Shown: one piece after another, positions 49,894 through 64,000 of the stretch
Numbering within the stretch: position 1 is the first letter of the stretch
How the letters are laid out: the number at the start of each line of letters is the position of its first letter
Assembly: GCF_003018255.1 (NCBI RefSeq)
Contig: NZ_CP027440.1
DNA: 64,000 nucleotides
Direction: 5' to 3' (one strand)
Source of the DNA: Escherichia coli
Lineage (GTDB): Bacteria > Pseudomonadota > Gammaproteobacteria > Enterobacterales > Enterobacteriaceae
Made by a program: the position numbers and the translations under genes
The notes under the pieces: model-generated
Databases searched by the model: none
Told to the model about the DNA's origin: nothing
Seen by the model: only the letters and a program-made list of their open reading frames with translations

Positions 49894-49923
49894 AAGGCGC
49901 TGCATCGACAGCGCCTTTTCTTT
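49894..49923 (+). terminator. metG rho-independent terminator
   Basis: AAGGCGCTGCATCGACAGCGCCTT followed by TTCTTT. Confidence 0.8.
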
Positions 49924-50024
49924 ATAAATTCCTAAATTTGTTTTCTTGCGATTTTGTCTCTCTCTAACCCGCATAAATACTGGTAGCATCTGCATTCAAC
50001 TGGATAAAATTACAGGGATGCAGA

Positions 50025-53000
50025 ATGAGACACTTTATCTATCAGGACGAAAAATCACATAAATTCTGGGCGGTGGAGCAGCAGGGAAACGAACTGCACA
50101 TCAACTGGGGTAAAGTCGGCACCAACGGACAAAGCCAGGTAAAAAGTTTTGCGGATGCAGCAGCGGCGGAAAAAGCGGGACTGAAGCTGATTGCAGAGAA
50201 GGTGAAGAAGGGGTATGTGGAGCAAGCGAAGGATAATTCTTTGCAACCTTCCCAAACGGTAACGGACTCTCTCAAGGTAGCTGACTTATCCACCATTATT
50301 CAGGAACAACCCTCTTTCGTAGCAGAAACCCGTGCGGCTGACAAAAATACAGATGCTGTTTTACCGTGGCTGGCGAAAGATATTGCTGTCGTTTTTCCGC
50401 CCGAAGTTGTACACACCACGTTAAGTCATCGCCGCTTTCCCGGAGTTCCTGTTCAGCAAGCAGACAAATTGACCCAATTACGTCGCTTAGCCTGTAGTGT
50501 GTCGCAACGGGATAATAAAACAGCCACATTTGACTTCAGCGCCTGTTCTTTAGAATGGCAAAACACCGTCGCCCAGGCGATCAGTCAGATCGACGGCCTG
50601 AAAACAACACAGCTACCATCACCCGTAATGGCTGTACTCACTGCACTTGAAATGAAATGCACAAGATATAAAGAGCGTGAGGATGTTATGGATCAGATTA
50701 TTCAGGAAGGCGGTCTGGAATATGCTACTGATGTAATAATACATCTTCAACAAATATCTATTGAATGGGATTATGTCAACAATAATATTGTTTTCCTGTC
50801 GTCTGGCATTTCACCTGATTACTTGCAGCAATATTCCAGCTTTGAATTACGCCTACGTAAACATTTATCACTGGCGGAAGAGTCTCTCTGGCAAAAATGT
50901 GCACAAAAACTTATTGCCGCAATTCCACATATTCCAGAATGGCGGCAACCATTAATTGCTTTGTTATTACCCGAAAAACCAGAAATTGCACATGAAATTT
51001 CCCAGCGTCTACTGGGGCAAAAGAAATTACCCTCGCTTGAGTGGCTAAAAATAGTGGCGACTGATGAGCACATTCTTGCCTCATTAGAAAAATATCACGA
51101 GCCATATGCCATTTTTGATGATTACTATTGTGGTGCGATATGGTCAGCCACCGTATTACAGGAGCAAGGTGTTACAGCCCTGCCCCGATTTGCTCCCTAT
51201 GCCGCAAGTGACTACTGCGCCGATGTGTTGCGTCATATCAATCATCCGTTCGCATTAACACTGCTTATACGTGTAGCCGGGCATACTAAACGCTGTCACG
51301 ATCGAATGACGAAAGCCTGCGCTGCGTTCCCACACGCAGCACTGGCAGCACTGGCGGAACTTCTAGTGCAAAAAGAAGAGAATAGTTGGCGCATTATGCT
51401 AATGACGATGCTTATCTCGCATCCGACACTAGCAGAACAGGTCATTCCCTGGCTTTCGACACCCGCAGTTGCAGTGCTGAAATCATGTCAGCAACAACTG
51501 ACACAGCCCTCAAACCATGCCAGCGCCGATCTACTGCCGGCCATAGTAGTCTCCCCACCATGGCTTTCGAAAAAGAAAAAATCGCCGATTCCGGTGCTGG
51601 ATTTAGCACCGCTCAACCTCGAATCCATATGCACAATAACCGACACAGAAGCTAAAGAGTTTCAAACTCATTGGGACTGGGAACCGCATAAGCCAAGTGA
51701 AGGTGCTAAAAATTTCCTTTACTCGCTGGGGTATCGCCGCTGGGATTTTGACACATATAAATATATCGGCGCTTCTGACTCGGCAATTGACGCATGGGAA
51801 CGTGAGGACTTCGCTACACTCATCCAAATGTTTAAAGCCCACCATGCACCGTATCAGGGGGAGTGGCATCTCAACTCACTTCCCTTTTTACCTATGCAAA
51901 AAGCGATTAAGCTATGGGAATTTCTCAGCAAAGAGCCGCATACCGCGATAAAACCAGTCATGCTTTATTTGCGACTGGCAGGTATGAGTGGTTTTCTACA
52001 CTCGTTTTCACGCTACCCTCAAGAAGGTTTTGCGGTTGCTAATTATTTTGCCGCAACGGAACTGGCTCCTGCCGTCGCCCGCGCCTTCAACAAACTCAAA
52101 ACATTACGACAAGACGCCAGTAGCTGGCTGCTGAAATACCCGGAACACGCCATTACCGGCCTGCTGCCTGCAGCGCTCGGCAAAGCCAGTGAAGCACAGG
52201 ACAACGCCCGTGCTGCCTTGCGTATGCTTACCGAAAACGGTCATCAGCCATTGCTGCAAGAAATCGCCCGGCGTTATAACCAGCCGGAAGTAACCGATGC
52301 GGTGAACGCTCTACTTGCGCTCGATGCCTTAGATAATCACCCGACAAAAATCCCCACTCTTCCGACCTTTTATCAGCCATCGCTCTGGACGCGCCCGTTA
52401 TTAAAAGCAAACGCCCAATCACTGCCTGATAGCGCACTCCTCCACCTCGGTGAAATGCTCCGCTTCCCTCAGGAAGAGGCACTGTATCCGGGATTATTGC
52501 AGGTGAAAGATGCCTGTACCACCGACTCACTGGCTGAATTTGCCTGGGATCTGTTTACCGCCTGGCAGACCGCTGGCGCGCCGTCGAAAGAGAGTTGGGC
52601 GTTCACTGCGTTAGGCGTTCTCGGTAACGATGACACCGCCCGCAAACTGACGCCTTTGATTCGCGCCTGGCCTGGTGAATCCCAGCATAAACGCGCCACC
52701 GTCGGGTTGGATATTCTCGCTGCTATCGGTAGTGATATCGCCCTGATGCAGCTTAACGGCATCGCCCAGAAACTGAAATTCAAAGCATTACAGGAGCGGG
52801 CAAAAGAAAAAATTGCCGACATTGCCGAGAGCCGCGAACTCACGGTGGCGGAGCTTGAAGATCGGTTAGCACCGGATCTCGGTCTGGATGATAATGGTTC
52901 GTTGTTGCTGGATTTCGGCCCACGCCAGTTCACCGTCAGCTTTGATGAAACCTTAAAACCGTTTGTGCGTGACGCTTCCGGCAGTCGTCTGAAAGACCTG

Positions 53001-53813
53001 CCCAAACCAAACAAAAGCGATGATGAATTACAGGCGAACAATGCTGTTAACCGCTACAAATTGCTGAAAAAAGATGCGCGTACCGTCGCCGCCCAGCAGG
53101 TAGCAAGGCTGGAATCCGCCATGTGCCTGCGTCGCCGCTGGTCACCGGAAAACTTTCAGCTCTTCCTGGTTGAGCATCCGCTGGTCCGCCACTTAACCCG
53201 CCGTCTGATTTGGGGCGTTTATAGCGCCGAAAACCAGCTACTGGCTTGCTTTCGCGTAGCGGAAGATAACAGCTACAGCACCGCTGACGATGATCTTTTC
53301 ACCCTGCCGGAAGGCGATATCTCTATTGGTATTCCTCACGTTCTGGAAATATCACCGACGGATGCTGCCGCCTTCGGGCAGCTTTTTGCCGACTACGAAC
53401 TGTTACCACCGTTCCGCCAGCTTGATCGTAACAGTTACGCGCTGACAGAAGCCGAGCGCAATGCCAGCGAACTGACACGCTGGGCAGGCAGAAAATGCCC
53501 GAGTGGTCGGGTAATGGGGCTGGCAAATAAAGGCTGGATGCGTGGTGAACCGCAGGACGGTGGCTGGATCGGCTGGATGATCAAACCTCTGGGCCGCTGG
53601 TCGTTAATCATGGAAATCGATGAAGGTTTTGCGGTCGGCATGTCGCCAGCCGAACTCAGTGCCGAGCAACTCTTAAGCAAGCTGTGGCTATGGGAAGGCA
53701 AAGCGGAAAGCTATGGCTGGGGGAGTAATTCAACACAGGAAGCGCAGTTCTCCGTACTCGATGCCATCACCGCCAGCGAGCTAATTAACGATATTGAAGC
53801 CCTGTTTGAATAA
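50025..53813 (+). CDS. yehH: WGR-domain / DUF4132-type giant protein YehH (intact MolR; remembered as a split pseudogene in K-12)
   Basis: Uninterrupted 1262-aa ORF. The N-terminal WGR-type motif is FWAVEQQGNELHINWGKVGTNGQSQVKSF...KLIAEKVKKGY. A long helical-repeat body follows, and the C-terminal region is shared with YehI (LDFGPRQFTVSFDE..., RLIWGVY). Confidence 0.88.
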   Translation: MRHFIYQDEKSHKFWAVEQQGNELHINWGKVGTNGQSQVKSFADAAAAEKAGLKLIAEKVKKGYVEQAKDNSLQPSQTVTDSLKVADLSTIIQEQPSFVAETRAADKNTDAVLPWLAKDIAVVFPPEVVHTTLSHRRFPGVPVQQADKLTQLRRLACSVSQRDNKTATFDFSACSLEWQNTVAQAISQIDGLKTTQLPSPVMAVLTALEMKCTRYKEREDVMDQIIQEGGLEYATDVIIHLQQISIEWDYVNNNIVFLSSGISPDYLQQYSSFELRLRKHLSLAEESLWQKCAQKLIAAIPHIPEWRQPLIALLLPEKPEIAHEISQRLLGQKKLPSLEWLKIVATDEHILASLEKYHEPYAIFDDYYCGAIWSATVLQEQGVTALPRFAPYAASDYCADVLRHINHPFALTLLIRVAGHTKRCHDRMTKACAAFPHAALAALAELLVQKEENSWRIMLMTMLISHPTLAEQVIPWLSTPAVAVLKSCQQQLTQPSNHASADLLPAIVVSPPWLSKKKKSPIPVLDLAPLNLESICTITDTEAKEFQTHWDWEPHKPSEGAKNFLYSLGYRRWDFDTYKYIGASDSAIDAWEREDFATLIQMFKAHHAPYQGEWHLNSLPFLPMQKAIKLWEFLSKEPHTAIKPVMLYLRLAGMSGFLHSFSRYPQEGFAVANYFAATELAPAVARAFNKLKTLRQDASSWLLKYPEHAITGLLPAALGKASEAQDNARAALRMLTENGHQPLLQEIARRYNQPEVTDAVNALLALDALDNHPTKIPTLPTFYQPSLWTRPLLKANAQSLPDSALLHLGEMLRFPQEEALYPGLLQVKDACTTDSLAEFAWDLFTAWQTAGAPSKESWAFTALGVLGNDDTARKLTPLIRAWPGESQHKRATVGLDILAAIGSDIALMQLNGIAQKLKFKALQERAKEKIADIAESRELTVAELEDRLAPDLGLDDNGSLLLDFGPRQFTVSFDETLKPFVRDASGSRLKDLPKPNKSDDELQANNAVNRYKLLKKDARTVAAQQVARLESAMCLRRRWSPENFQLFLVEHPLVRHLTRRLIWGVYSAENQLLACFRVAEDNSYSTADDDLFTLPEGDISIGIPHVLEISPTDAAAFGQLFADYELLPPFRQLDRNSYALTEAERNASELTRWAGRKCPSGRVMGLANKGWMRGEPQDGGWIGWMIKPLGRWSLIMEIDEGFAVGMSPAELSAEQLLSKLWLWEGKAESYGWGSNSTQEAQFSVLDAITASELINDIEALFE

Positions 53814-53822
53814 GGAAAGAGC

Positions 53823-56800
53823 ATGGACAAGGAATTACCGTGGCTGGCGGATAACGCCCAACTGGAACTGAAATATAAAAAAGGCAAAACACCACTCAGC
53901 CATCGCAATTGGCCAGGCGAACCGGTACCTGTTATCACTGAAAACATCATTCAGACACTGGGTGATGAATTGCTACAAAAAGCAGAGAAGAAAAAAAACA
54001 TTGTCTGGCGTTATGAAAACTTTTCACTGGAGTGGCAGTCCGCCATCACGCAGGCCATCAACTTGATCGGCGAACACAAACCCTCAATCACGGCCCGGAC
54101 AATGGCGGCGCTAGCCTGTATCGCGCAAAATGATAGCCAACAGTTGCTCGACGAAATCGTCCAACACGAGGGGCTGGAATATGCAACTGAGGTGGTGATT
54201 GCACGCCAGTTTATTGTACGGTGTTATGAGAGTGATCCTCTGGTAGTAACATTGCAATATCAGAACGAGGACTATGGCTATGGTTATCGCTCAGAAACCT
54301 ATAACGAATTCGATCTCCGATTGCGTAAGCATCTCTCTCTGGCAGAGGAAAGCTGCTGGCAGCGTTGCGCCGACAAACTCATTGCCGCACTGCCAGGAAT
54401 AACCAAAGTTCGCCGCCCTTTTATTGCGCTGAACCTCCCGGAAAAACCCGAAATCGCCAACGAGCTGGTAAGCCTTGAATGTTCGCAAACTCATTTTCGC
54501 TCAAAAGAGTGGTTAAAAGTTGTTGCTGATGACCCTAAGGCGGTGAAAGAACTCGCACGTTACTGGAGCCAGGATATATTTAGCGATCGAGAAGCCAGCT
54601 ACATGTCGCATGAAAACCACTTCGGCTACGCGGCCTGCGCTGCCCTTTTGCGCGAACAAGGACTGGCAGCCGTTCCGCGCCTCGCGATGTATGCACATAA
54701 AGAAGATTGCGGCAGTCTGCTGGTACAAATTAACCATCCGCAAGTCATCCGCACCTTGCTACTGGTGGCTGATAAAAACAAACCCAGCCTGCAACGTGTG
54801 GCTAAATACAGTAAAAACTTCCCCCATGCGACGCTCGCCGCACTGGCAGAACTGCTGGCGTTAAAAGCCCCCCCTGCGCGCCCTGGTTATCCCATCATCG
54901 AAGACCAAAAGCTGCCTGCACAGCAAAAAGCACGTGATGAATACTGGCATACGCTGTTACAAACGCTGATGGCATCGCAGCCACAACTGGCAGAAGAGGT
55001 GATGCCGTGGTTAAGTACTCAAGCCCGGGCAGTGCTGAATAGTTATTTATCGGCACCGCCCAAAACGGTTATTGATAGCACCGATAACAGCCAAATGCCT
55101 GAAATCCTCGTTTCACCACCGTGGCGTAGTAAGAAAAAAATGACAGCTCCACGTCTTGATTTGGCACCGCTCGAATTAACCCCGCAAGTTTACTGGCAAC
55201 CAGGCGAACAAGAGAGGCTTGCCTCCACTGAGTCTGCCCGTTATTTCAGCACGGAATCTCTTGCTGAACGCATGGAACAAAAAAGTGGACGAGTTGTATT
55301 ACAGGAACTGGGTTTTGGGGATGATGTATGGCTGTTTCTGAATTATATACTCCCCGGAAAACTGGATGCTGCACGCAATTCACTCATTGTTCAGTGGCAT
55401 TACTACCCAGGGCGGGTTGAAGAGATCATGAATGGCTGGAGCTCCCCGGAAGCTCAATTAGCAGAACAGGCGCTTCGCAGCGGTCACGTAGAAGTGTTAA
55501 TTAACATATGGGAAAATGACAGCTACTCACGTTATCGTCCGGAAAAGAGTGTCTGGAACCTGTATTTATTGGCACAGTTGCCGCGTGAGATGGCTTTGCC
55601 TTTCTGGCTACGTATCAATGAGAAAAAGCATCTGTCTGCGGGTGAGGACTATTTTCTCAGTATCTTCGGATTGGATGCTCTACCAGGTCTGCTGTTGGCT
55701 TTTTCACATCGTCCAAAAGAAACATTTCCGTTAATTTTAAATTTTGGCGCAACAGAACTGGCCCTGCCCGTTGCCCGCGTCTGGCGACGTTTCGCGGCGC
55801 AGCGTGATCTGGCCCGCCAGTGGATTTTACAATGGCCGGAACATACGGCTACTGCACTTATCCCTCTTGTCTTCACCAAACCCAGCGATAATAGCGAAGC
55901 TGCATTACTTGCCCTACGTTTACTTTACGAACAGGGACATGGTGAATTGCTGCAAACCGCGGCAAACCGCTGGCAGCGTACAGATGTATGGCCTGCCCTG
56001 GAGCATTTACTTAAACAGAGTCCAATAGAGATTTACCCGGCACGCATGCCAAAAGCCCCTGATTTCTGGCATCCGCTAATGTGGTCCAGGCCGCGCCTAA
56101 TCATTAATCATCAACTTATTACCGATGACGCTCTGGAAATTATCGGCGAAATGCTGCGCTTTACCCAGGGGGGACGTTTTCATAGCGGGCTGGAACAACT
56201 GAAAACGTTCTGCCAGCCGCAAACGCTGGCAGCTTTTGCCTGGGATCTCTTCACTGCGTGGCAACAAGCTGGTGCCCCCGCAAAAGACAACTGGGCATTT
56301 CTGGCGTTAAGTCTCTTTGGTGACGAAAGCACGGCACGGGATCTAACGACACAGATCCTCGCCTGGCCACAAGAAGGCAAATCTACCCGTGCTGTCAGTG
56401 GCCTGAACATCCTTACCCTGATGAATAATGATATGGCGCTGATACAGCTGCATCATATATCGCAACGGGCGAAATCCCGCCCCTTACGTGATAACGCGGC
56501 GGAATTTCTTCAGGTGGTCGCAGAAAATCGCGGGCTAAGCCAGGAAGAGTTAGCGGACAGATTAGTCCCAACACTGGGCCTTGATGATCCGCAGGCGTTG
56601 AGTTTTGATTTTGGTCCCCGGCAGTTTACCGTTCGCTTCGATGAAAACCTTAACCCGGTTATCTTTGATCAGCAAAACGTTCGCCAGAAAAGCGTTCCCC
56701 GGTTGCGCACCGATGACGATCAACTGAAAGCGCCCGAGGCACTGGCCCGATTAAAAGGGCTAAAAAAAGATACGACTCAGGTGAGCAAAAACCTGCTCCC

Positions 56801-57455
56801 CCGTCTTGAAGCTGCCCTGCGTACCACCCGACGCTGGTCGCTGGCAGATTTTCATTCTCTGTTTGTTAATCATCCCTTTACCCGTCTGGTTACCCAGCGA
56901 TTAATATGGGGCGTGTATCCGGCAAATGAACCGCGTCGTTTACTCAACGCCTTTCGTGTGGCCGCAGAGGGGGAGTTCTGCAATGCGCAAGATGAGCCCA
57001 TTGACCTGCCTGCGGATGCTCTGATTGGCATTGCCCACCCGTTAGAAATGACAGAAGGAATGCGCAGTGAATTTGCACAGCTTTTTGCCGATTACGAAAT
57101 TATGCCGCCTTTTCGCCAGTTGGCGCGGCGCACGGTGCTGCTCACACCTGACGAGTCAACCAGTAACAGCCTGACTCGCTGGGAAGGTAAATCCGCTACC
57201 GTTGGGCAGCTTATGGGAATGCGATACAAAGGCTGGGAGTCAGGCTATGAGGACGCATTTGTCTATGGCCTGGGCGAGTACCGGCTGGTCCTTAAGTTTT
57301 CACCCGGTTTTAACCACTACAATGTTGATAGCAAAGCGTTAATGAGCTTCCGTTCTCTTCGAGTGTACCGTGACAATAAATCCGTCACTTTTGCCGAACT
57401 TGATGTGTTTGATTTGAGTGAGGCGTTAAGCGCACCTGACGTCATTTTCCATTAA
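53823..57455 (+). CDS. yehI: DUF4132-type giant protein YehI (paralog of YehH without the WGR domain)
   Basis: 1210-aa ORF starting 9 nt after the yehH stop, with an AAGGAAAG SD. It aligns by eye to YehH from about residue 105 (LPWLA..., LRLRKHLSLAEES.W..CA.KLIAA.P, FDFGPRQFTVRFDE, RLIWGVY). Confidence 0.9.
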   Translation: MDKELPWLADNAQLELKYKKGKTPLSHRNWPGEPVPVITENIIQTLGDELLQKAEKKKNIVWRYENFSLEWQSAITQAINLIGEHKPSITARTMAALACIAQNDSQQLLDEIVQHEGLEYATEVVIARQFIVRCYESDPLVVTLQYQNEDYGYGYRSETYNEFDLRLRKHLSLAEESCWQRCADKLIAALPGITKVRRPFIALNLPEKPEIANELVSLECSQTHFRSKEWLKVVADDPKAVKELARYWSQDIFSDREASYMSHENHFGYAACAALLREQGLAAVPRLAMYAHKEDCGSLLVQINHPQVIRTLLLVADKNKPSLQRVAKYSKNFPHATLAALAELLALKAPPARPGYPIIEDQKLPAQQKARDEYWHTLLQTLMASQPQLAEEVMPWLSTQARAVLNSYLSAPPKTVIDSTDNSQMPEILVSPPWRSKKKMTAPRLDLAPLELTPQVYWQPGEQERLASTESARYFSTESLAERMEQKSGRVVLQELGFGDDVWLFLNYILPGKLDAARNSLIVQWHYYPGRVEEIMNGWSSPEAQLAEQALRSGHVEVLINIWENDSYSRYRPEKSVWNLYLLAQLPREMALPFWLRINEKKHLSAGEDYFLSIFGLDALPGLLLAFSHRPKETFPLILNFGATELALPVARVWRRFAAQRDLARQWILQWPEHTATALIPLVFTKPSDNSEAALLALRLLYEQGHGELLQTAANRWQRTDVWPALEHLLKQSPIEIYPARMPKAPDFWHPLMWSRPRLIINHQLITDDALEIIGEMLRFTQGGRFHSGLEQLKTFCQPQTLAAFAWDLFTAWQQAGAPAKDNWAFLALSLFGDESTARDLTTQILAWPQEGKSTRAVSGLNILTLMNNDMALIQLHHISQRAKSRPLRDNAAEFLQVVAENRGLSQEELADRLVPTLGLDDPQALSFDFGPRQFTVRFDENLNPVIFDQQNVRQKSVPRLRTDDDQLKAPEALARLKGLKKDTTQVSKNLLPRLEAALRTTRRWSLADFHSLFVNHPFTRLVTQRLIWGVYPANEPRRLLNAFRVAAEGEFCNAQDEPIDLPADALIGIAHPLEMTEGMRSEFAQLFADYEIMPPFRQLARRTVLLTPDESTSNSLTRWEGKSATVGQLMGMRYKGWESGYEDAFVYGLGEYRLVLKFSPGFNHYNVDSKALMSFRSLRVYRDNKSVTFAELDVFDLSEALSAPDVIFH

Positions 57456-57516
57456 AAACACAGCGGGCAGTGATGCAACTGCCCGTTATCAACACGACTT
57501 ACCAGCGGGGAAAGCG

Positions 57517-57870
57517 ATGATCGTGCAAAAAGAGCTGGTTGCTATTTACGATTATGAGGTCCCTGTACCTGAAGATCCGTTTTCCTTCAGACTTGAGATC
57601 CATAAATGCTCTGAATTATTTACAGGTTCCGTCTATCGACTGGAGCGATTCCGGCTACGTCCAACATTTCATCAACGTGATCGAGAAGATGCTGACCCGC
57701 TAATAAATGATGCGTTGATTTATATAAGAGATGAGTGTATTGATGAGCGGAAATTACGAGGTGAATCACCTGAAACTGTAATAGCAATTTTTAATCGTAA
57801 ACTACAGAATATATTCAACCAACTAATAGAATATTACTTTATTAAAGGGGGAAGCGGTTTTCCCCCTTAG
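57517..57870 (+). CDS. yehK: Small protein of unknown function YehK (3' end runs into the zor terminator hairpin)
   Basis: 117-aa ORF (MIVQKELVAIYDYEVPVPEDPF...). The last codons (IKGGSGFPP*) are encoded by the GGGGGAAGCGGTTTTCCCCC hairpin. Confidence 0.8.
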   Translation: MIVQKELVAIYDYEVPVPEDPFSFRLEIHKCSELFTGSVYRLERFRLRPTFHQRDREDADPLINDALIYIRDECIDERKLRGESPETVIAIFNRKLQNIFNQLIEYYFIKGGSGFPP

Positions 57871-57889
57871 TTGCGTTTCAATTTGCCCA

Positions 57890-57979
57890 TTACTTCAACA
57901 AATCAATCAACCGTAACAGAGCCACTAATAGCTCCAGTACAGCAATGAGCACGGTTAACTTTTGTGTCAGCGTGTCCAT
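57890..57979 (-). CDS. zorO: Zor-family type I toxin, 29 aa: MDTLTQKLTVLIAVLELLVALLRLIDLLK (copy 1; O/P assignment not determined)
   Basis: My own minus-strand translation, with an AAGGAG SD 5 nt upstream. The peptide matches ZorO of the zor-orz family (first described in O157:H7) as I recall it. A TATAAT (minus strand, 58166-58161) lies about 175 nt upstream, consistent with the long 5' UTR reported for zorO. Confidence 0.8.
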   Translation of the reverse strand: MDTLTQKLTVLIAVLELLVALLRLIDLLK

Positions 57980-58217
57980 CCGCTCTCCTTATTAAGGAGC
58001 GCAACACCAGCACCTTACCCTTACACTGCCTGTCGACACTGGTTTACGTTTGTTGAGTCGCCATGTTGCACTCCGGATCAGAGCACTACCTGCGGCACCA
58101 CCCGTCCGGTAGCCAGGACTTGAAATGGGTTCGATCCGGCGCAACTTCCCAACAGTCAGGATTATAAATCTCATTATCTTAATTGCAACACGGTCCAGCG
58201 GTGGTTATAATTCGTTC

Positions 58218-58297
58218 GTTGAGATGCCATGTTGCACTATCAGTAACTTAACATCAAAGTAGTAAATAAAAGAACCTGCCTCACCAGCAGGTTCTTT
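58218..58297 (+). ncRNA. orzO: Orz-family antitoxin sRNA, copy 1 (ends approximate)
   Basis: TTGCAA (58183-58188), a 17-nt spacer and TATAAT (58206-58211). The 5' segment GTTGAGATGCCATGTTGCACT is complementary to the zor 5' UTR at 58052-58072. Terminator AGAACCTGCCTCACCAGCAGGTTCT plus TTTTATTTT. Confidence 0.72.
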
Positions 58298-58497
58298 TAT
58301 TTTCTGCGATCTACTTTCCAGATATTTTTCGCCAATAGCCCACCATAAATATTCACATCCCGGCCAAATAGTACGTTGATTATAAAATCGATGAATTTAT
58401 AAATAAAAATGAGTTATATGATGAATTAATAAAAACAGTAATCATTTTATTAAAGGGGGAAACGGTATTCCCCCTTAGATGCGTTTCAATTTGCCCG

Positions 58498-58587
58498 TTA
58501 CTTCAACAAATCAATCAACCGTAACAGAGCCACTAATAGCTCCAGTACAGCAATGAGCACGGTTAACTTTTGTGTCAGCGTGTCCAT
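58498..58587 (-). CDS. zorP: Zor-family type I toxin, 29 aa, identical peptide (copy 2)
   Basis: The 90-nt ORF is identical to copy 1, with the same SD and the same promoter arrangement (minus-strand TATAAT at 58774-58769). Confidence 0.8.
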   Translation of the reverse strand: MDTLTQKLTVLIAVLELLVALLRLIDLLK

Positions 58588-58825
58588 CCGCTCTCCTTAT
58601 TAAGGAGCGCAACACCAGCACCTTACCCTTACACTGCCTGTCGATACTGGTTTACGTATGTTGGTACGAAACGTTGCTCTCCGGATCAGGGCACCGCCTG
58701 CGGCACCACCCGTCCAGCAGCCAGGACTTAAAATTGGTCCGATCCGGCACAACCTCCCAACGGGCAGGATTATAAATCTCATTCACTGAATTGCAATGGA
58801 GTGTGGATATGGTTATAATTTATTC

Positions 58826-58908
58826 GTTGGTACGAAATGTTGCACAATCAGCAAGTTAGCGTCATTGTAGTAAATAAAAGAACCTGCCTCACCAGCAGGT
58901 TTTTTTAT
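58826..58908 (+). ncRNA. orzP: Orz-family antitoxin sRNA, copy 2 (ends approximate)
   Basis: TTGCAA (58791-58796), a 17-nt spacer and TATAAT (58814-58819). The 5' segment GTTGGTACGAAATGTTGCACA is complementary to the zor 5' UTR at 58660-58680. Terminator AGAACCTGCCTCACCAGCAGGTT plus TTTTTTATTT. Confidence 0.72.
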
Positions 58909-59017
58909 TTACTGTGATCTGCTTTCCAGATATTTTTCGCTCAAACAACTAATGCGGCAAACATTTATTGCGCGTAAAATATCGTTTATTTCATTAATAC
59001 ATTTCAGGGATGAATAT

Positions 59018-60106
59018 ATGTCACCGCAGAATAATCATCTGCAGCGTCCGCCTGCCGCTGTGTTATACGCCGATGAACTGGCAAAATTAAAACAAAATGA
59101 TCACGCACCTTGCCCGCCCGGTTGGCAGTTAAGTTTGCCTGCGGCCCGCGCTTTTATCCTTGGCGATAGCGCGCAAAATATTAGCCGTAAAGTCGTGATC
59201 AGTCCCTCCGCTGTCGAACGCATGTTAGTCACTCTCGCTACCGGGCGCGGTTTGATGTTGGTGGGGGAACCTGGCACCGCAAAATCGCTCCTGTCTGAAT
59301 TACTGGCAACCGCTATTAGCGGCGATGCCGGGTTAACCATCCAGGGCGGCGCATCTACCACCGAAGATCAAATCAAGTACGGCTGGAACTACGCCCTGCT
59401 TATCAACCATGGTCCGTCAACGGAAGCGCTGGTCCCTGCCCCGCTTTACCAGGGAATGCGCGACGGCAAAATTGTCCGTTTTGAAGAGATAACGCGTACA
59501 CCGCTGGAAGTACAAGACTGTCTGTTAGGTATGCTTTCTGACAGGGTAATGACGGTGCCGGAACTCACCGGTGAAGCCAGTCAGCTCTATGCGCGAGAAG
59601 GCTTTAATATTATTGCCACTGCCAATACCCGCGATCGCGGCGTCAATGAGATGAGTGCCGCGCTAAAGCGTCGCTTCGATTTTGAAACCGTCTTTCCGAT
59701 TATGGATTTCGCCCAGGAGCTGGAACTGGTCGCCAGTGCTTCGGCGCGTTTGCTGGCCCATAGCGGTATTCCGCATAAAGTGCCTGACGCGGTACTGGAG
59801 TTACTGGTCCGCACCTTCCGCGATCTGCGTGCCAACGGCGAAAAGAAAACGTCAATGGATACCCTGACGGCAATTATGTCCACCGCTGAAGCCGTGAACG
59901 TGGCCCACGCAGTGGGCGTCCGCGCCTGGTTTTTAGCGAATCGCGCAGGTGAGCCAGCCGATCTGGTGGACTGTATTGCCGGAACCATCGTCAAAGATAA
60001 CGAAGAAGATCGCGCTCGTCTGCGCCGTTACTTCGAACAGCGAGTCGCCACACATAAAGAAGCTCACTGGCAGGCTTATTATCAAGCTCGCCACCGCCTG
60101 CCGTGA
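59018..60106 (+). CDS. yehL: MoxR-class AAA+ ATPase YehL (AAA_5-type)
   Basis: Track ORF 58952..60106. The start is ATG 59018 (MSPQNNHLQRPPAAV), giving 362 aa. Walker A GEPGTAKS, Walker B-like IVRFEEITR, sensor-1 IIATANTRD, and an arginine region SAALKRRFDF. Confidence 0.9.
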   Translation: MSPQNNHLQRPPAAVLYADELAKLKQNDHAPCPPGWQLSLPAARAFILGDSAQNISRKVVISPSAVERMLVTLATGRGLMLVGEPGTAKSLLSELLATAISGDAGLTIQGGASTTEDQIKYGWNYALLINHGPSTEALVPAPLYQGMRDGKIVRFEEITRTPLEVQDCLLGMLSDRVMTVPELTGEASQLYAREGFNIIATANTRDRGVNEMSAALKRRFDFETVFPIMDFAQELELVASASARLLAHSGIPHKVPDAVLELLVRTFRDLRANGEKKTSMDTLTAIMSTAEAVNVAHAVGVRAWFLANRAGEPADLVDCIAGTIVKDNEEDRARLRRYFEQRVATHKEAHWQAYYQARHRLP

Positions 60107-60116
60107 GGAAAGATGC

Positions 60117-62396
60117 ATGAGCGAGCCGTTAATTGTCGGCATCCGGCATCATAGTCCGGCCTGCGCCCGGCTGGTGAAATCGTTAATCGAAAGCCAGCGG
60201 CCACGATACGTGTTGATTGAAGGCCCGGCTGATTTTAATGACCGGGTAGACGAACTGTTTTTAGCCCACCAGCTTCCGGTAGCTATTTACAGTTATTGCC
60301 AGTATCAGGACGGTGCAGCCCCCGGGCGTGGTGCCTGGACGCCATATGCTGAATTTTCGCCGGAGTGGCAGGCGCTACAAGCCGCTCGTCGTATTCAGGC
60401 ACAAACTTACTTCATCGATTTGCCTTGCTGGGCGCAGAGTGAAGAAGAGGACGATTCGCCTGATACGCAAGAGGAAAGCCAGACCTTGCTGCTGCGTGCC
60501 ACCCGCATGGATAACAGCGACACCCTGTGGGATCACTTGTTCGAAGATGAAAGCCAGCAAACTGCATTACCCTCTGCACTGGCGCACTATTTTGCACAAC
60601 TGCGGGGCGATTCCCCCGGAGATGCTCTCAATCGTCAGCGCGAAGACTTTATGGCCCGCTGGATTGGTTGGGCGATGCAGCAAAACAATGGCGACGTGTT
60701 AGTCGTCTGCGGTGGCTGGCACGCTTCTGCACTGGCAAAAATGTGGCGCGAATGCCCGCAGGAAATTAACACGCCGGAATTGCCCTCGCTGGCAGATGCC
60801 GTTACAGGTTGTTATCTCACCCCCTACAGTGAAAAGCGCCTTGATGTGCTGGCAGGATACCTTTCCGGTATGCCTGCCCCGGTCTGGCAAAACTGGTGCT
60901 GGCGGTGGGGCTTGCAGCAGGCAGGTGAACAACTGCTGAAAACGGTTCTTACCCGTTTGCGCCAGCACCACTTGCCTGCTTCAACAGCGGATATGGCTGC
61001 CGCTCATCTGCATGCGATGGCACTGGCACAGTTGCGTGGTCATACACTACCGTTACGCACTGACTGGCTGGATGCCATAGCAGGCTCGCTGATTAAAGAA
61101 GCCCTGAATGCGCCGTTGCCGTGGAGCTATCGCGGCGTTATTCATCCCGATACCGATCCGATTCTGCTAACGTTGATAGACACATTAGCGGGTGACGGAT
61201 TCGGTAAACTTGCCCCCTCTACGCCACAGCCGCCTCTGCCAAAAGATGTCACCTGCGAACTGGAACGTACAGGAATCTCTTTTCCGGCGGAGCTTACTTT
61301 AAATCGCTTTACCCCCGATGGACTGGCGCAAAGTCAGGTGTTACATCGGCTGGTAATACTGGAGATCCCAGGGGTTGTGCGCCAGCAGGGAAGTACACTG
61401 ACACTTGCAGGCAACGGTGAAGAACGCTGGAAATTAACCCGCCCGCTTAGCCAACATGCGGCATTAATTGAGGCCGCCTGCTTTGGTGCCACACTCCAGG
61501 AAGCCGCACGCAATAAATTAGAAGCCGATATGCTGGACGCGGGTGGAATCGGCAGTATCACCACATGTCTTAGCCAGGCGGCGTTAGCGGGTCTGGCGTC
61601 CTTCAATCAACAATTACTGGAGCAACTCACATTATTAATCGCCCAGGAAAATCAGTTTGCCGAAATGGGCCAGGCGCTGGAAGTGCTATATGCCTTATGG
61701 CGGCTGGATGAAATTAGCGGTATGCAGGGCGCGCAGATATTACAAACGACATTATGCGCGGCCATCGATCGCACGCTGTGGCTATGTGAATCCAACGGCA
61801 GACCGGATGAAAAGGAGTTTCACGCTCACCTGCATAGCTGGCAAGCGCTTTGCCATATCCTGCGCGATCTACATAGCGGCGTTAATTTACCCGGCGTTTC
61901 TCTTTCTGCGGCGGTAGCCTTACTGGAGCGACGCAGTCAGGCGATTCATGCCCCGGCGCTGGATCGCGGCGCGGCACTTGGCGCACTGATGCGTCTGGAA
62001 CATCCCAACGCCAGTGCCGAAGCGGCGCTGACAATGCTGGTGCAATTATCCCCGACACAATCCGGCGAGGCGCTGCACGGTTTGCTGGCATTAGCCCGTC
62101 ATCAACTGGCCTGTCAGCCGGTATTTATCGCCGGTTTCAGCAGTCATTTAAATCAACTGAGTGATGCCGATTTTATCAATGCCCTGCCCGATTTACGCGC
62201 GGCGATGGCCTGGCTACCACCACGAGAACGCGGGACGCTGGCGCATCAGGTGCTTGAGCATTATCAACTGGTGCAACTTCCCGTTTCGGCACTGCAAATG
62301 CCGTTGCATTGTCCACCACAAGACATTGCACATCATCAACAACTCGAACAGCAGGCACTGGCATCGCTGCAACACTGGGGAGTTTTCCATGTCTGA
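60117..62396 (+). CDS. yehM: Large protein of unknown function YehM
   Basis: Track ORF 59949..62396. The start is ATG 60117, which is 10 nt after the yehL stop and preceded by a GAGGAAAG SD (MSEPLIVGIRHHSPACARLV...). This gives 759 aa. The body is mostly Leu/Ala-rich and helical. Confidence 0.88.
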   Translation: MSEPLIVGIRHHSPACARLVKSLIESQRPRYVLIEGPADFNDRVDELFLAHQLPVAIYSYCQYQDGAAPGRGAWTPYAEFSPEWQALQAARRIQAQTYFIDLPCWAQSEEEDDSPDTQEESQTLLLRATRMDNSDTLWDHLFEDESQQTALPSALAHYFAQLRGDSPGDALNRQREDFMARWIGWAMQQNNGDVLVVCGGWHASALAKMWRECPQEINTPELPSLADAVTGCYLTPYSEKRLDVLAGYLSGMPAPVWQNWCWRWGLQQAGEQLLKTVLTRLRQHHLPASTADMAAAHLHAMALAQLRGHTLPLRTDWLDAIAGSLIKEALNAPLPWSYRGVIHPDTDPILLTLIDTLAGDGFGKLAPSTPQPPLPKDVTCELERTGISFPAELTLNRFTPDGLAQSQVLHRLVILEIPGVVRQQGSTLTLAGNGEERWKLTRPLSQHAALIEAACFGATLQEAARNKLEADMLDAGGIGSITTCLSQAALAGLASFNQQLLEQLTLLIAQENQFAEMGQALEVLYALWRLDEISGMQGAQILQTTLCAAIDRTLWLCESNGRPDEKEFHAHLHSWQALCHILRDLHSGVNLPGVSLSAAVALLERRSQAIHAPALDRGAALGALMRLEHPNASAEAALTMLVQLSPTQSGEALHGLLALARHQLACQPVFIAGFSSHLNQLSDADFINALPDLRAAMAWLPPRERGTLAHQVLEHYQLVQLPVSALQMPLHCPPQDIAHHQQLEQQALASLQHWGVFHV

Positions 62397-63525
62397 ACTG
62401 AACGATCTTCTGACCACCCGTGAGCTACAACGCTGGCGATTAATTCTTGGCGAAGCGGCAGAAACGACGCTTTGTGGGCTGGATGACAACGCCCGGCAGA
62501 TAGACCACGCGATGGAGTGGCTGTATGGGCACGATCCTGAACGGTTCCAGCGTGGTGAACGCTCCGGTGGATTAGGTTGCTCAAATCTCACCCCCCCTGA
62601 GTGGATCAACAGTATTCACACGCTGTTTCCGCAACAGGTGATTGAACGGCTGGAAAGCGATGCCGTACTGCGCTACGGCATTGAAGATGTGGTGACGAAT
62701 CTCGACGTGCTGGAACGTATGCAACCGTCTGAAAGCCTGCTACGCGCCGTTTTGCACACCAAACATCTGATGAATCCCGAAGTACTGGCTGCCGCCCGCC
62801 GGATAGTACGCCAGGTTGTTGAAGAAATTATGGCTCGACTGGCAAAGGAAGTTCGTCAGGCTTTTTCTGGTGTCCGCGATCGCCGCCGTCGCTCATTTAT
62901 TCCACTGGCGCGTAATTTCGATTTCAAAAGTACGCTGCGTGCCAACCTGCAACACTGGCATCCGCAACACGGCAAGTTGTATATCGAATCCCCCCGCTTT
63001 AACAGCCGCATTAAGCGCCATAGCGATCAATGGCAACTGGTCTTACTGGTTGATCAAAGCGGATCGATGGTTGACTCGGTGATCCACTCAGCGGTGATGG
63101 CGGCCTGTTTATGGCAGTTACCCGGCATTCGTACCCATCTGGTGGCGTTTGACACCAGCGTGGTTGATCTCACGGCAGACGTTGCCGATCCGGTAGAGTT
63201 ATTAATGAAAGTACAACTGGGCGGCGGGACCAATATCGCCAGTGCCGTGGAGTATGGTCGGCAACTTATTGAACAACCTGCAAAAAGTGTCATTATCCTC
63301 GTGAGCGATTTCTATGAAGGTGGTTCATCATCATTGCTGACGCATCAGGTGAAAAAGTGTGTCCAGAGCGGCATCAAAGTGCTGGGACTGGCGGCGCTCG
63401 ATAGCACCGCAACACCTTGCTATGACCGCGATATGGCCCAGGCACTGGTTAATGTCGGTGCACAAATAGCCGCCATGACGCCGGGCGAACTGGCGACCTG
63501 GCTTGCGGAGAATCTTCAGTCATGA
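62389..63525 (+). CDS. yehP: von Willebrand factor A (MIDAS) protein YehP
   Basis: Track ORF 62161..63525. The start is ATG 62389, overlapping the yehM stop (ATGTCTGA), giving 378 aa. MIDAS residues: LLVDQSGSM, GGGTNIASA, ILVSDFYEGG. Confidence 0.9.
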   Translation: MSELNDLLTTRELQRWRLILGEAAETTLCGLDDNARQIDHAMEWLYGHDPERFQRGERSGGLGCSNLTPPEWINSIHTLFPQQVIERLESDAVLRYGIEDVVTNLDVLERMQPSESLLRAVLHTKHLMNPEVLAAARRIVRQVVEEIMARLAKEVRQAFSGVRDRRRRSFIPLARNFDFKSTLRANLQHWHPQHGKLYIESPRFNSRIKRHSDQWQLVLLVDQSGSMVDSVIHSAVMAACLWQLPGIRTHLVAFDTSVVDLTADVADPVELLMKVQLGGGTNIASAVEYGRQLIEQPAKSVIILVSDFYEGGSSSLLTHQVKKCVQSGIKVLGLAALDSTATPCYDRDMAQALVNVGAQIAAMTPGELATWLAENLQS

Positions 63526-64000
63526 ATTCACTACGTCCGGAATTATTAGAACTGACACCACAGGCACTGACGGCGTTAAGCAATGCCGGTTTTGTTAAGC
63601 GCAGCCTTAAAGAACTGGAAAATGGCAACGTCCCGGAAATCAGTCATGAGAACGGCGCTTTAATCGCCACCTTCAGTGACGGTGTCCGCACCCAGCTGGC
63701 GAACGGCCAGGCACTGAAAGAGGCTCAGTGCAGCTGCGGGGCCAGCGGCATGTGCCGCCATCGCGTGATGCTGGTTTTAAGTTATCAGCGACTTTGCGCC
63801 ACCACCCAGCCTACGGAAAAAGAAGAAGAGTGGGATCCGGCAATCTGGCTGGAAGAACTGGCTACCCTGCCCGATGCCACCCGCAAACGCGCACAGGCGC
63901 TGGTCGCTAAAGGCATCACCATTGAGTTGTTCTGTACGCCGGGCGAAATTCCCTCTGCCCGCTTACCGATGAGCGATGTACGTTTTTATTCCCGCAGCAG
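63522..64000 (+). CDS. yehQ: SWIM zinc-finger protein YehQ, N-terminal 159 codons (continues past the window end)
   Basis: The ATG at 63522 overlaps the yehP stop (ATGA). My translation is MNSLRPELLELTPQALTALSNAGFVKRSLKELENG... with SWIM CxC-x7-CxH (CSCGASGMCRH, nt 63729-63761). The frame stays open to nt 64000. It is absent from the ORF track because no stop lies inside the window. Confidence 0.85.
   Translation, partial: MNSLRPELLELTPQALTALSNAGFVKRSLKELENGNVPEISHENGALIATFSDGVRTQLANGQALKEAQCSCGASGMCRHRVMLVLSYQRLCATTQPTEKEEEWDPAIWLEELATLPDATRKRAQALVAKGITIELFCTPGEIPSARLPMSDVRFYSRS

Follow-up and report, generated by a model that had tools for sequence, protein, structure and literature searches.

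The yeh genes of Escherichia coli include yehH (also called molR), yehI, yehK, yehL, yehM, yehP and yehQ, and we have analyzed them in a stretch of 64,000 nucleotides (nt) from contig NZ_CP027440.1 (assembly GCF_003018255.1), to which we refer as the window. They occupy its last 13,976 bases, starting at position 50025. An initial annotation, made by reading the window without any database search, had proposed that the seven genes make up one multi-component NTPase system, possibly one for stress or defense. We have evaluated that proposal using comparative data. The gene set extends far beyond E. coli, and it very probably has the architecture of a single system, composed of a variable array of genes of the DUF4132 family (yehH and yehI in E. 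coli) and a core of four genes, yehL-yehM-yehP-yehQ (LMPQ for short).

The gene calls given below are those on which the open reading frame (ORF) list of the window and the annotation of a 99.9% identical genome (locus L001) agree. The full length of yehQ (667 amino acids, aa) is taken from L001:19498-21501, as the remainder of the gene lies beyond the window end.

50025-53813, + strand: yehH (molR), intact, 1262 aa, with a WGR head, a helical solenoid and a C-terminal DUF4132 module.
50040-50231, + strand: WGR head of yehH (residues 6-69, Pfam).
51465-52184, + strand: hypervariable central segment of yehH (about codons 480-720).
52980-53537, + strand: DUF4132 module of yehH (Pfam residues 986-1171).
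53823-57455, + strand: yehI, 1210 aa, a paralogue of YehH (39% identical) without WGR.
56682-57236, + strand: DUF4132 module of yehI (residues 954-1138, Pfam).
57517-57870, + strand: yehK, a 117-aa ORF found only in Escherichia.
57833-58940: tandem zorO-orzO / zorP-orzP type I toxin-antitoxin insert.
59018-60106, + strand: yehL, a MoxR-type AAA+ ATPase (AAA_5), 362 aa.
60117-62396, + strand: yehM (DUF5682), 759 aa, with a predicted TraB-like N-terminal domain (about residues 1-245, nt 60117-60851), a middle alpha/beta region and a C-terminal HEAT-like solenoid.
62389-63525, + strand: yehP, a CoxE-type vWA protein with a complete MIDAS, 378 aa.
63522-64000, + strand: 5′ part of yehQ (159 of 667 codons), a double-SWIM zinc-finger protein.

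All seven same-strand ORFs, and every junction and motif that the initial annotation described, are found in the sequence. Within each half, the junctions are of the translational-coupling type. The yehH/yehI junction reads TAA-GGAAAGAGC-ATG, a 9-nt gap with the Shine-Dalgarno sequence GGAAAG, and the yehL/yehM junction reads TGA-GGAAAGATGC-ATG, a 10-nt gap with GGAAAG; yehM and yehP share a ATGTCTGA overlap, and yehP and yehQ an ATGA overlap. The profile searches that had been proposed as a check give, with Pfam, WGR, DUF4132, AAA_5, VWA_CoxE and SWIM on the proteins where each was expected, and in addition DUF5682 on YehM. As a side observation on base composition, the G+C content is 44-45% in the first 1.5 kb of yehH (window 50000-51500) and 54-56% in yehLMPQ (59000-64000).

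Do the two halves travel together outside E. coli? In a forward test, one genome per GTDB species was scanned with a YehM alignment, resulting in at least 581 confirmed places, of which the best 80 were kept; together with L001, they make a set of 81 loci. The six-frame ORFs of these loci were searched with the E. coli proteins, singly and then iteratively. The set covers at least five phyla, and includes Enterobacterales, other Gammaproteobacteria, Betaproteobacteria, Myxococcota, Actinobacteria, Acidobacteria and Desulfuromonadaceae. We observe YehL in 79 loci, YehP in 79, YehQ in 74, and a DUF4132 protein in 70. The usual gene order is one to four DUF4132 genes followed by yehL-yehM-yehP-yehQ, all on a single strand. 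A DUF4132 gene sits directly upstream of yehL on the same strand in 65 loci, at a median distance of about 50 nt (100 nt or less in 48 loci), and in a dozen loci, mostly actinobacterial, the stop of one gene overlaps the start of the other. Escherichia is an outlier, with a distance of 1.0-1.6 kb. In the remaining DUF4132-positive loci, the gene is found downstream of yehQ (Burkholderia and some Myxococcota) or on the opposite strand. WGR heads are present in 49 of the 81 loci.

The reverse test uses a metagenome scan seeded on the DUF4132 module, which results in 77 loci. Core genes are present in 63 of them, and most of the others end within 1.5 kb. When five DUF4132 proteins were looked up singly, four adjoined an AAA_5-DUF5682-VWA_CoxE-SWIM set and one was an orphan. 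Beyond these genes, the flanks contain no recurrent partner: the 112 ORFs that flank 34 diverse loci include no family with more than four occurrences, and thus the gene set, one or several DUF4132 genes plus LMPQ, is self-contained. The claim of one multi-component system stands up to this comparison, since both halves co-occur far outside close relatives (70/81 loci forward, 63/77 in reverse). The identity of YehM to the E. coli protein is 69-71% in Klebsiella, 47% in Serratia, 45% in Variovorax, 43% in Aeromicrobium and 39% in Polyangiaceae, and such a flat identity across phyla suggests horizontal transfer.

The functional residues of the ATPase and of the vWA protein do not vary over 73-74 non-Escherichia loci. 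YehL is a Pfam AAA_5 protein (119.3 bits, cut-off 22), and its Walker A motif GEPGTAKS (residues 83-90), the Walker-B-like VRFEEITR, N197, R218/R219 and R268/R271 are 100% conserved in 74 loci. The initial annotation gave YehL as the name of a MoxR subfamily, and indeed the E. coli protein is the namesake of one of the seven MoxR subfamilies (PMC3893208). The gene for its putative partner, yehP, lies two genes downstream of yehL, which is the genomic AAA+/vWA pairing characteristic of MoxR ATPases. YehP matches VWA_CoxE with 240.9 bits (cut-off 26.4), and its MIDAS consists of DQSGS at residues 222-226, T281 and D307; D222, S224, S226, T281 and D307 are 100% conserved in 73 loci. A cassette prone to +1 ribosomal frameshifting has been published in yehP (PMC2790909), and that cassette, GTGGAGTATGGTCGGC, stands unchanged at 63247-63262 of the window. 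Frameshifting there would yield a 303-aa product without the MIDAS aspartate D307.

YehQ scores 33 bits with Pfam SWIM (cut-off 19.6), in two stretches. A single SWIM finger had been described for it: that finger is there, CSCGASGMCRH at residues 70-80, with C70/C72/C78/H80 95% conserved, and a second SWIM-like CxC..CxH at residues 166-176, with C166/C168/C174/H176 78% conserved, had been missed. Outside the SWIM fingers, no homologue of YehQ was detected, including by a profile search of PDB sequences. Searches of NCBIfam with the Yeh proteins gave only far sub-threshold matches (GvpN, MadB and the WGR head of a Leptospira family).

YehM had been described as a 759-aa unknown protein. The length is right, and the protein is a member of DUF5682 (Pfam, 320 bits) with a recognizable fold. 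In a confident predicted model, its N-terminus is an alpha/beta domain like those of TraB, TIKI, ChaN, HopBA1 and the erythromycin esterases, and the structural matches of its C-terminal half are HEAT/ARM solenoids (huntingtin, importins, symplekin, Scc2). The invariant polar residues of YehM are R10, H11, S13, P14, C16, E35, H51, D101, D135, D139, E143, R175, E176 and G199-G200-x-H202, which suggest the GxxH...E...GxxH pattern of the TIKI/TraB/ChaN/erythromycin-esterase superfamily; G8-x-x-H11, E35 and G199-G200-x-H202 are 97-100% conserved. As an example, the motifs LIGSIHMGS, LIVEAD and VVAVGALHL of YbaP, the TraB-family protein of E. coli, correspond in order to IVGIRHHSP, VLIEGPAD and LVVCGGWHA in YehM, and judging by sequence G38-x-x-H41, E67 and G248-x-x-H251 of YbaP appear to follow the same order as the YehM set, with similar spacing for the first two. 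The YehM N-domain is probably a metal-dependent hydrolase. YehM also has features that set it apart from the other proteins of this group (TIKI, TraB, PrgY, GumN, ChaN, erythromycin esterase, HopBA1). Its domain is fused to a solenoid of about 500 aa and sits inside a MoxR-vWA operon, and it has the extra invariant residues R10, H12, C16, H51, D101, D135, D139, E143, R175 and E176.

An exhaustive search with the YehM N-domain, among 1.84 billion proteins, resulted in 1808 clusters at 50% identity, in which the domain is nearly always N-terminal in proteins of 730-840 aa. Three proteins (P0412, P0502, P0503), from three distinct 50%-identity clusters and 39-44% identical to E. coli YehM, are single DUF5682-VWA_CoxE polypeptides, that is, YehM-YehP fusions. 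These sequences suggest a direct coupling of YehM and YehP, and gene calls that read through the overlapping stop and start may account for them.

At the other end of the locus, the initial annotation had seen two paralogs of about 1200 aa sharing a C-terminal module. That module is DUF4132, present in YehH (176 bits, next to a WGR match of 65.5 bits with a cut-off of 22) and in the 39% identical YehI (159 bits). An AlphaFold2 model of YehH residues 861-1262 has a predicted local distance difference test score (pLDDT) of 95, and the modeled DUF4132 module has no fold match in the PDB. Its invariant polar set, in YehH numbering, is D999, K1016, E1030, H1051, R1077, H1105, Y1124, Q1132, R1135 and E1252.

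The array and the core evolve differently within E. coli. Of 5426 complete E. coli genomes, 5413 contain a match to the 13,976-base stretch, and 4537 cover at least 80% of it at one place. Of 5638 records that match metG, 5379 show 95-99% identity to the window; for yehH, 4576 of 5412 records show only 90-95%, and no more than 4009 genomes cover 80% or more of the gene. We calculated pairwise ratios of nonsynonymous to synonymous substitution rates (dN/dS) between the window and four other E. coli strains. We obtain 0.01 for apbC and 0.03 for metG; the core gives 0.03-0.05 for yehL, 0.05-0.07 for yehP, 0.09-0.12 for yehQ and 0.12-0.16 for yehM; and the array gives 0.18-0.27 for yehI and 0.29 for yehH. 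YehL and YehP evolve like housekeeping genes; YehH and YehI are mosaic, hypervariable and copy-number-variable in E. coli.

The alleles of YehH are 78-86% identical in protein, and the divergence is concentrated in the head and the center. In the central segment the alleles are only 20-49% identical, in comparison with 91-100% in the DUF4132 module, and the proportions of nonsynonymous and synonymous differences (pN and pS) are 0.15-0.44 and 0.37-0.86, respectively. Blocks with pS of 0.4-0.86 adjoin blocks in which it is near zero, and this mosaic points to old alleles shuffled by recombination. Positive selection is not demonstrated: where pN/pS exceeds 1 in a sliding segment, the number of changes behind it is very small.

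The number of DUF4132 copies is two to three within E. coli, and one to four elsewhere. Strains B19695 and CAVp367 carry a third DUF4132 gene, of about 1266 aa, between metG and yehH (L089:9180-12977 and L090:9180-12980). The third-copy protein is 47-48% identical to the YehH of the window, and over its first 100 residues the window YehH is 70-72% identical to this third copy, compared with 62-75% to the yehH of other strains. These identities hint that the two-copy state may have arisen by recombination between DUF4132 copies. Broken alleles are common. In K-12 MG1655 (L171), yehH is split into yehF (a WGR fragment) and a pseudogene, and yehQ has an internal stop (614 aa vs. 667), which makes K-12 a natural double mutant of yehH and yehQ. 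In B19695, yehL is frameshifted and yehM is interrupted by a stop, and in VL40 an IS421 lies inside yehH. A large sublineage of sequence type 131 (ST131) carries the resistance transposon TnMB1860 in the yeh region (PMC9334617).

The regulatory features of the locus, and the details of the insert that separates its halves, are as follows.

49883: 3′ end of metG, the upstream neighbor of yehH.
50000-50015, + strand: LexA (SOS) box-like site CTGGATAAAATTACAG, 9 nt 5′ of the yehH ATG, a CTG-N10-CAG with an AT-rich spacer.
57890-57979 and 58498-58587, - strand: two identical ZorO-type ORFs, 29 aa each.
58225-58298 and 58833-58906, + strand: OrzO-P small RNAs (Rfam RF02083, 90.2 and 88.9 bits).

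The metG-yehH spacer consists of a terminator, then a promoter region, and then the LexA box-like site. The terminator is a GC-rich hairpin followed by a run of Ts just after metG, at 49896-49925 (GGCGCTGCATCGACAGCGCC-TTTTCTTT), and the yehH promoter region is 49926-50024. This spacer is nearly identical in five strains, also where a different DUF4132 gene comes first. The site CTGGATAAAATTACAG is conserved in four other strains, and it is identical in the K-12-like and the three-copy strains. In a review of the SOS response, molR (that is, yehH) is one of the LexA-regulated genes listed as having a known SOS box (PMC6590174). The idea that the locus has to do with stress gains support from this listing and from the presence of the box in the window. 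The window has 26 occurrences of CTG-N10-CAG where shuffled sequences lead one to expect 13.5, an excess that probably reflects how common CTG and CAG codons are, rather than LexA sites; the only intergenic one with an AT-rich spacer is that at 50000-50015.

Other regulators are known for either half. The yehH promoter is activated by BglJ-RcsB, and it is not repressed by H-NS (PMC3950696), while yehL and yehM are up in hns/stpA mutants, with an H-NS site in the upstream intergenic region (PMC3686432). In this strain, hairpin terminators lie between the halves, where yehK ends and behind each of the OrzO RNAs. Far from E. coli, in Deinococcus radiodurans, the WGR protein DR2173 and the DUF4132 protein DRA0166 are strongly induced upon depletion of DdrO, the repressor of the damage response (PMC8533742). 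A link to DNA damage is therefore supported in two distant lineages, and we do not claim any generality beyond them.

The zor-orz insert noticed in the initial annotation is real: it has two OrzO-P RNAs above the Rfam gathering score, ZorO-type ORFs, and a 608-bp unit duplicated in tandem (repeat families D1 and D2). It is absent from K-12, in which the yehK-yehL gap is about 300 bp, and it is an Escherichia-only insertion that interrupts the system rather than forming part of it. We also rejected yehK as a component. It has no Pfam match and is an Escherichia-only insertion, with homologues in four of the 81 loci, all from Escherichia or Shigella. The yehK product has 117 aa in the window, against 105 in K-12. 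Because its last codons and its stop sit inside the zor-orz repeat unit, the zor-orz insertion rewrote the yehK C-terminus.

How could such a set of proteins work? We propose that an invariant four-gene core, yehL-yehM-yehP-yehQ, would be served by a variable array of one to four WGR/solenoid/DUF4132 proteins acting as exchangeable sensor or adaptor subunits that confer specificity. The fast-evolving head and central solenoid of these proteins would recognize a ligand, and the constant C-terminal DUF4132 module would dock on the core. The WGR domains of PARP1-3 bind nucleic-acid breaks or ends, and by analogy with these eukaryotic proteins the WGR head of YehH suggests that the ligand may be nucleic-acid ends or breaks. 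YehL would be a MoxR AAA+ ring ATPase with YehP as its vWA/MIDAS adaptor, and together they would use ATP to remodel a complex, either by loading or activating the YehM hydrolase on a target, or by extracting a bound protein. YehQ may tether the complex to DNA or to protein. The array of Escherichia is split from the core by yehK and the toxin-antitoxin pair. It has a promoter of its own, activated by BglJ-RcsB and, in our reading, repressed by LexA, and the core is silenced by H-NS; given LexA control of the array, we propose that in E. coli the sensors are supplied upon DNA damage. The mechanism as a whole, a DNA-damage-linked sensor array coupled to a hydrolase core driven by MoxR and vWA proteins, we put forward tentatively, with a confidence that falls a little short of balance.

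There are several observations that pull the other way. Regarding the architecture, 11 of the 81 loci have no DUF4132 gene. Four of them end at a contig edge, and seven (L031, L053, L055, L058, L060, L064, L071) have unrelated neighbors, which leaves about six or seven adequately flanked loci that carry LMPQ with no DUF4132 gene adjacent. Conversely, of the 77 DUF4132-seeded loci, L154, L165, L168 and perhaps L098 have space for the core and do not carry it. As some well-flanked loci hold only one half, the coupling of array and core is not obligatory in cis. Both reverse samples are in addition biased to YehH-like DUF4132 proteins, and distant members such as those of Deinococcus may behave differently. 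In E. coli itself, separate promoters and regulators with terminators in between mean that the array and the core are run as two transcription units under different control. Independent expression of the halves had been named at the outset as a finding that would speak against one system; the different regulation in E. coli goes in that direction, and the adjacency of the halves is kept across phyla. Boxes of the gamma/beta type and of the actinobacterial type for LexA are not consistently present upstream of the arrays in other taxa, and for that reason we claim no conserved SOS control.

Regarding YehM, the sequence-level comparisons with TraB-like proteins stay below significance. The Pfam family Erythro_esteras is reached with E = 0.06, and by one of 12 members only; an hhalign comparison of the YehM N-domain with YbaP gives E = 0.33 and aligns only the third motif; and profile searches of the PDB with the full YehM and with its N-domain gave nothing meaningful. 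The superfamily membership of YehM consequently rests on the fold and the motif pattern. Furthermore, some members of the TraB/ChaN superfamily, such as ChaN, merely bind ligands. Finally, each mechanistic step is one that we infer.

A more specific version of the proposal is that Yeh is a DNA-damage machine, in which SOS-induced, exchangeable WGR/DUF4132 sensors would find protein-blocked or broken DNA, or the DNA ends of an invader, and recruit the MoxR/vWA motor and YehM, as a TIKI/TraB-type metalloprotease, to remove or cleave the bound protein. Yeh would resemble Cdc48/p97 with SPRTN or Wss1, and Rea1/Midasin, in joining an AAA+ motor and a MIDAS or adaptor part to a damage-linked metalloprotease-like subunit and to DNA-sensing domains (SWIM, and WGR as in the PARPs), a likeness that is a functional analogy only; beyond the generic AAA+ and vWA folds, the Yeh proteins seem to share no homology with them. 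The damage machine would then be, in function, a counterpart of eukaryotic p97-SPRTN/Wss1 crosslink repair, assembled from unrelated parts and with DUF4132 as a new docking fold. We consider this version quite improbable.

The leading rival, which we rank below the sensor-array mechanism and regard as unlikely, is that Yeh is an immune system against phages or mobile elements, in which the hypervariable DUF4132 proteins are receptors for molecules or DNA ends of the invader and the MoxR/vWA core switches on YehM as the effector, which arrests the infection or kills the cell. Much of what we have seen of the array would fit: the sensor genes are mosaic, hypervariable, variable in copy number and often inactivated (K-12, B19695, VL40, ST131). 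The horizontal transfer suggested by the flat identity of YehM, and the silencing of yehL and yehM by H-NS, would fit as well. Also, on plasmid pl1 of Iodobacter fluviatilis (L172, 76 kb, MOBP), a complete system with two DUF4132 genes, AAA, DUF5682, vWA and SWIM stands beside a type I restriction-modification system, insertion sequence (IS) elements and an integrase. Cassettes of vWA proteins and NTPases have been proposed computationally as conflict systems. In particular, the MoxR-vWA-beta-propeller ternary systems (bpMoxR) share with Yeh a MoxR and vWA core with large variable partners; however, YehL scores 18.6 bits with bpMoxR (PF20030), under the 27-bit cut-off, and Yeh has neither a beta-propeller nor a recognized effector-domain partner.

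The defense option of the initial annotation finds no support in known defense models, in flank content or in carriage by phages and plasmids. PADLOC v2.0.0 (5027 models, E ≤ 0.01) gives no matches for any of the seven proteins. The flank census shows mostly transport and metabolism genes with a few AriA-, LmuA- or MzaA-like matches, and with no matched background to compare these with it amounts to no clear defense enrichment. Rather than in a variable island, the E. coli locus is found at one fixed position, flanked by metG and yehR, in 5413 of 5426 genomes. The system is near-absent from viral contigs and rare on plasmids. We rejected viral carriage, as the single match (L092) among 2.9 million viral contigs (IMG/VR) is 96% identical to E. 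coli; on plasmids, YehM is found in 38 of 72,556 records, mostly chromids, megaplasmids or mis-typed chromosomes. PHROGs 20839, 36602, 36295, 30700, 33984, 31592 and 29006 do contain all seven Yeh proteins in near-identical form; such copies in virus libraries are most likely host DNA inside prophage predictions, and are not to be taken as a sign of phage origin. An immune role is also at odds with a dN/dS below 1 wherever the counts are adequate, and with the lack of a classical toxin domain.

Another possibility is that YehL and YehP form a MoxR-vWA chaperone for maturation or cofactor insertion, one that loads a metal or cofactor into a client (YehM or the DUF4132 proteins) in some metabolic role, compare the name of molR, 'molybdate metabolism regulator', a label under which yehH still appears in the literature (PMC3950696, PMC6590174). 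Yeh does look like the studied MoxR/vWA pairs RavA-ViaA, CoxD-CoxE, NorQ-NorD and CbbQ-CbbO in having an AAA_5/MoxR ATPase, an adjacent vWA protein with a complete MIDAS and tight gene coupling; the strong VWA_CoxE match of YehP (241 bits) and a weak resemblance of YehL to ATPases of the GvpN/CbbQ and CobS types go in the same direction. It differs from these pairs in that no known client enzyme is encoded nearby, in that it adds YehM (DUF5682), the double-SWIM YehQ and the WGR/DUF4132 array, none of which occurs in the studied pairs, and in that this partner array is hypervariable and one half is under SOS control. With respect to CoxD/CoxE, no cox or molybdoenzyme genes are found near the window or recur in the flanking ORFs, and neither do nor, cbb or cob genes recur there.

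The layout of an AAA_5 motor, a vWA/MIDAS subunit and a large subunit of about 1200 aa or more mirrors that of cobaltochelatase CobN-CobS-CobT, and of Mg-chelatase BchH-BchI-BchD; CobS is itself an AAA_5 protein, and YehL weakly matches a phage 'porphyrin biosynthesis' (CobS-like) family. The large subunits themselves differ, since in Pfam YehH and YehI match only WGR and DUF4132, without homology to CobN/BchH and without any Mg-chelatase or other enzyme domain, and Yeh has several alternative large subunits and no tetrapyrrole gene context. With client and partner genes missing, and the bpMoxR score below threshold, Yeh fails the CoxDE, chelatase and bpMoxR comparisons alike. A chaperone would suit the dense invariant His/Asp/Glu/Cys set of YehM as a metal site, the fusions of YehM to YehP in some organisms, and the haem binding of ChaN-type relatives. 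But partners that are hypervariable, copy-number-variable and often broken are unexpected for a metabolic maturation factor, for which SOS control would also be unusual; the molybdate genes of Deinococcus did not follow the WGR/DUF4132 genes (PMC8533742); and since yehH is disrupted in K-12, the 'molR' phenotype cannot rest on the K-12 gene. All in all, we see the chaperone as a rather improbable explanation.

The least probable of all is that in E. coli the cluster consists of two units independent of each other, or is a relic in decay, so that yehH-yehI(-yehK) would be an SOS pair with a role of its own, yehLMPQ a silent, horizontally acquired operon, and their adjacency a matter of history: separate regulators (LexA and BglJ-RcsB for yehH, H-NS for yehL), a 1.1-kb insert with terminators between the halves in this strain, pseudogenes of either half in different strains and a few loci elsewhere with one half only would agree with it, but here the catalytic motifs are all intact, all seven genes are clearly under purifying selection, at least 80% of the 14 kb persists in 4537 of 5426 E. 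coli genomes, and with the halves adjacent in more than 90% of the evaluable loci across phyla, a lack of functional linkage would be unexpected.

Returning to the sensor array coupled to the LMPQ core, what does it add to what is known? The genes and their domains are already annotated, hence the locus itself is no discovery. In the literature searched we found no paper on the function of the Yeh system, in agreement with what the initial annotation had stated, and the experimental reports are regulation studies and the yehP frameshift site. What appears to be new is that a variable DUF4132 array is coupled to LMPQ across phyla, that YehM is assigned a fold, and that there are YehM-YehP fusions. 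The second SWIM finger, the status of DUF4132 as a module without a solved relative, the gradient of constraint, and K-12 as a double mutant also appear to be new.

Among the unassigned genes of E. coli, the seven Yeh genes rank with the largest. Since yehH is broken and yehQ truncated in K-12, the knockout and overexpression resources built on that strain may never have tested an intact system, and these defects probably explain the scarcity of reported phenotypes. The putative catalytic residues H11, E35 and H202 of YehM make the idea of an enzyme specific. If Yeh were indeed a damage-linked protease machine, or an immune system, it would represent a new kind of MoxR-vWA function, and it would give the DUF4132 fold its first role.

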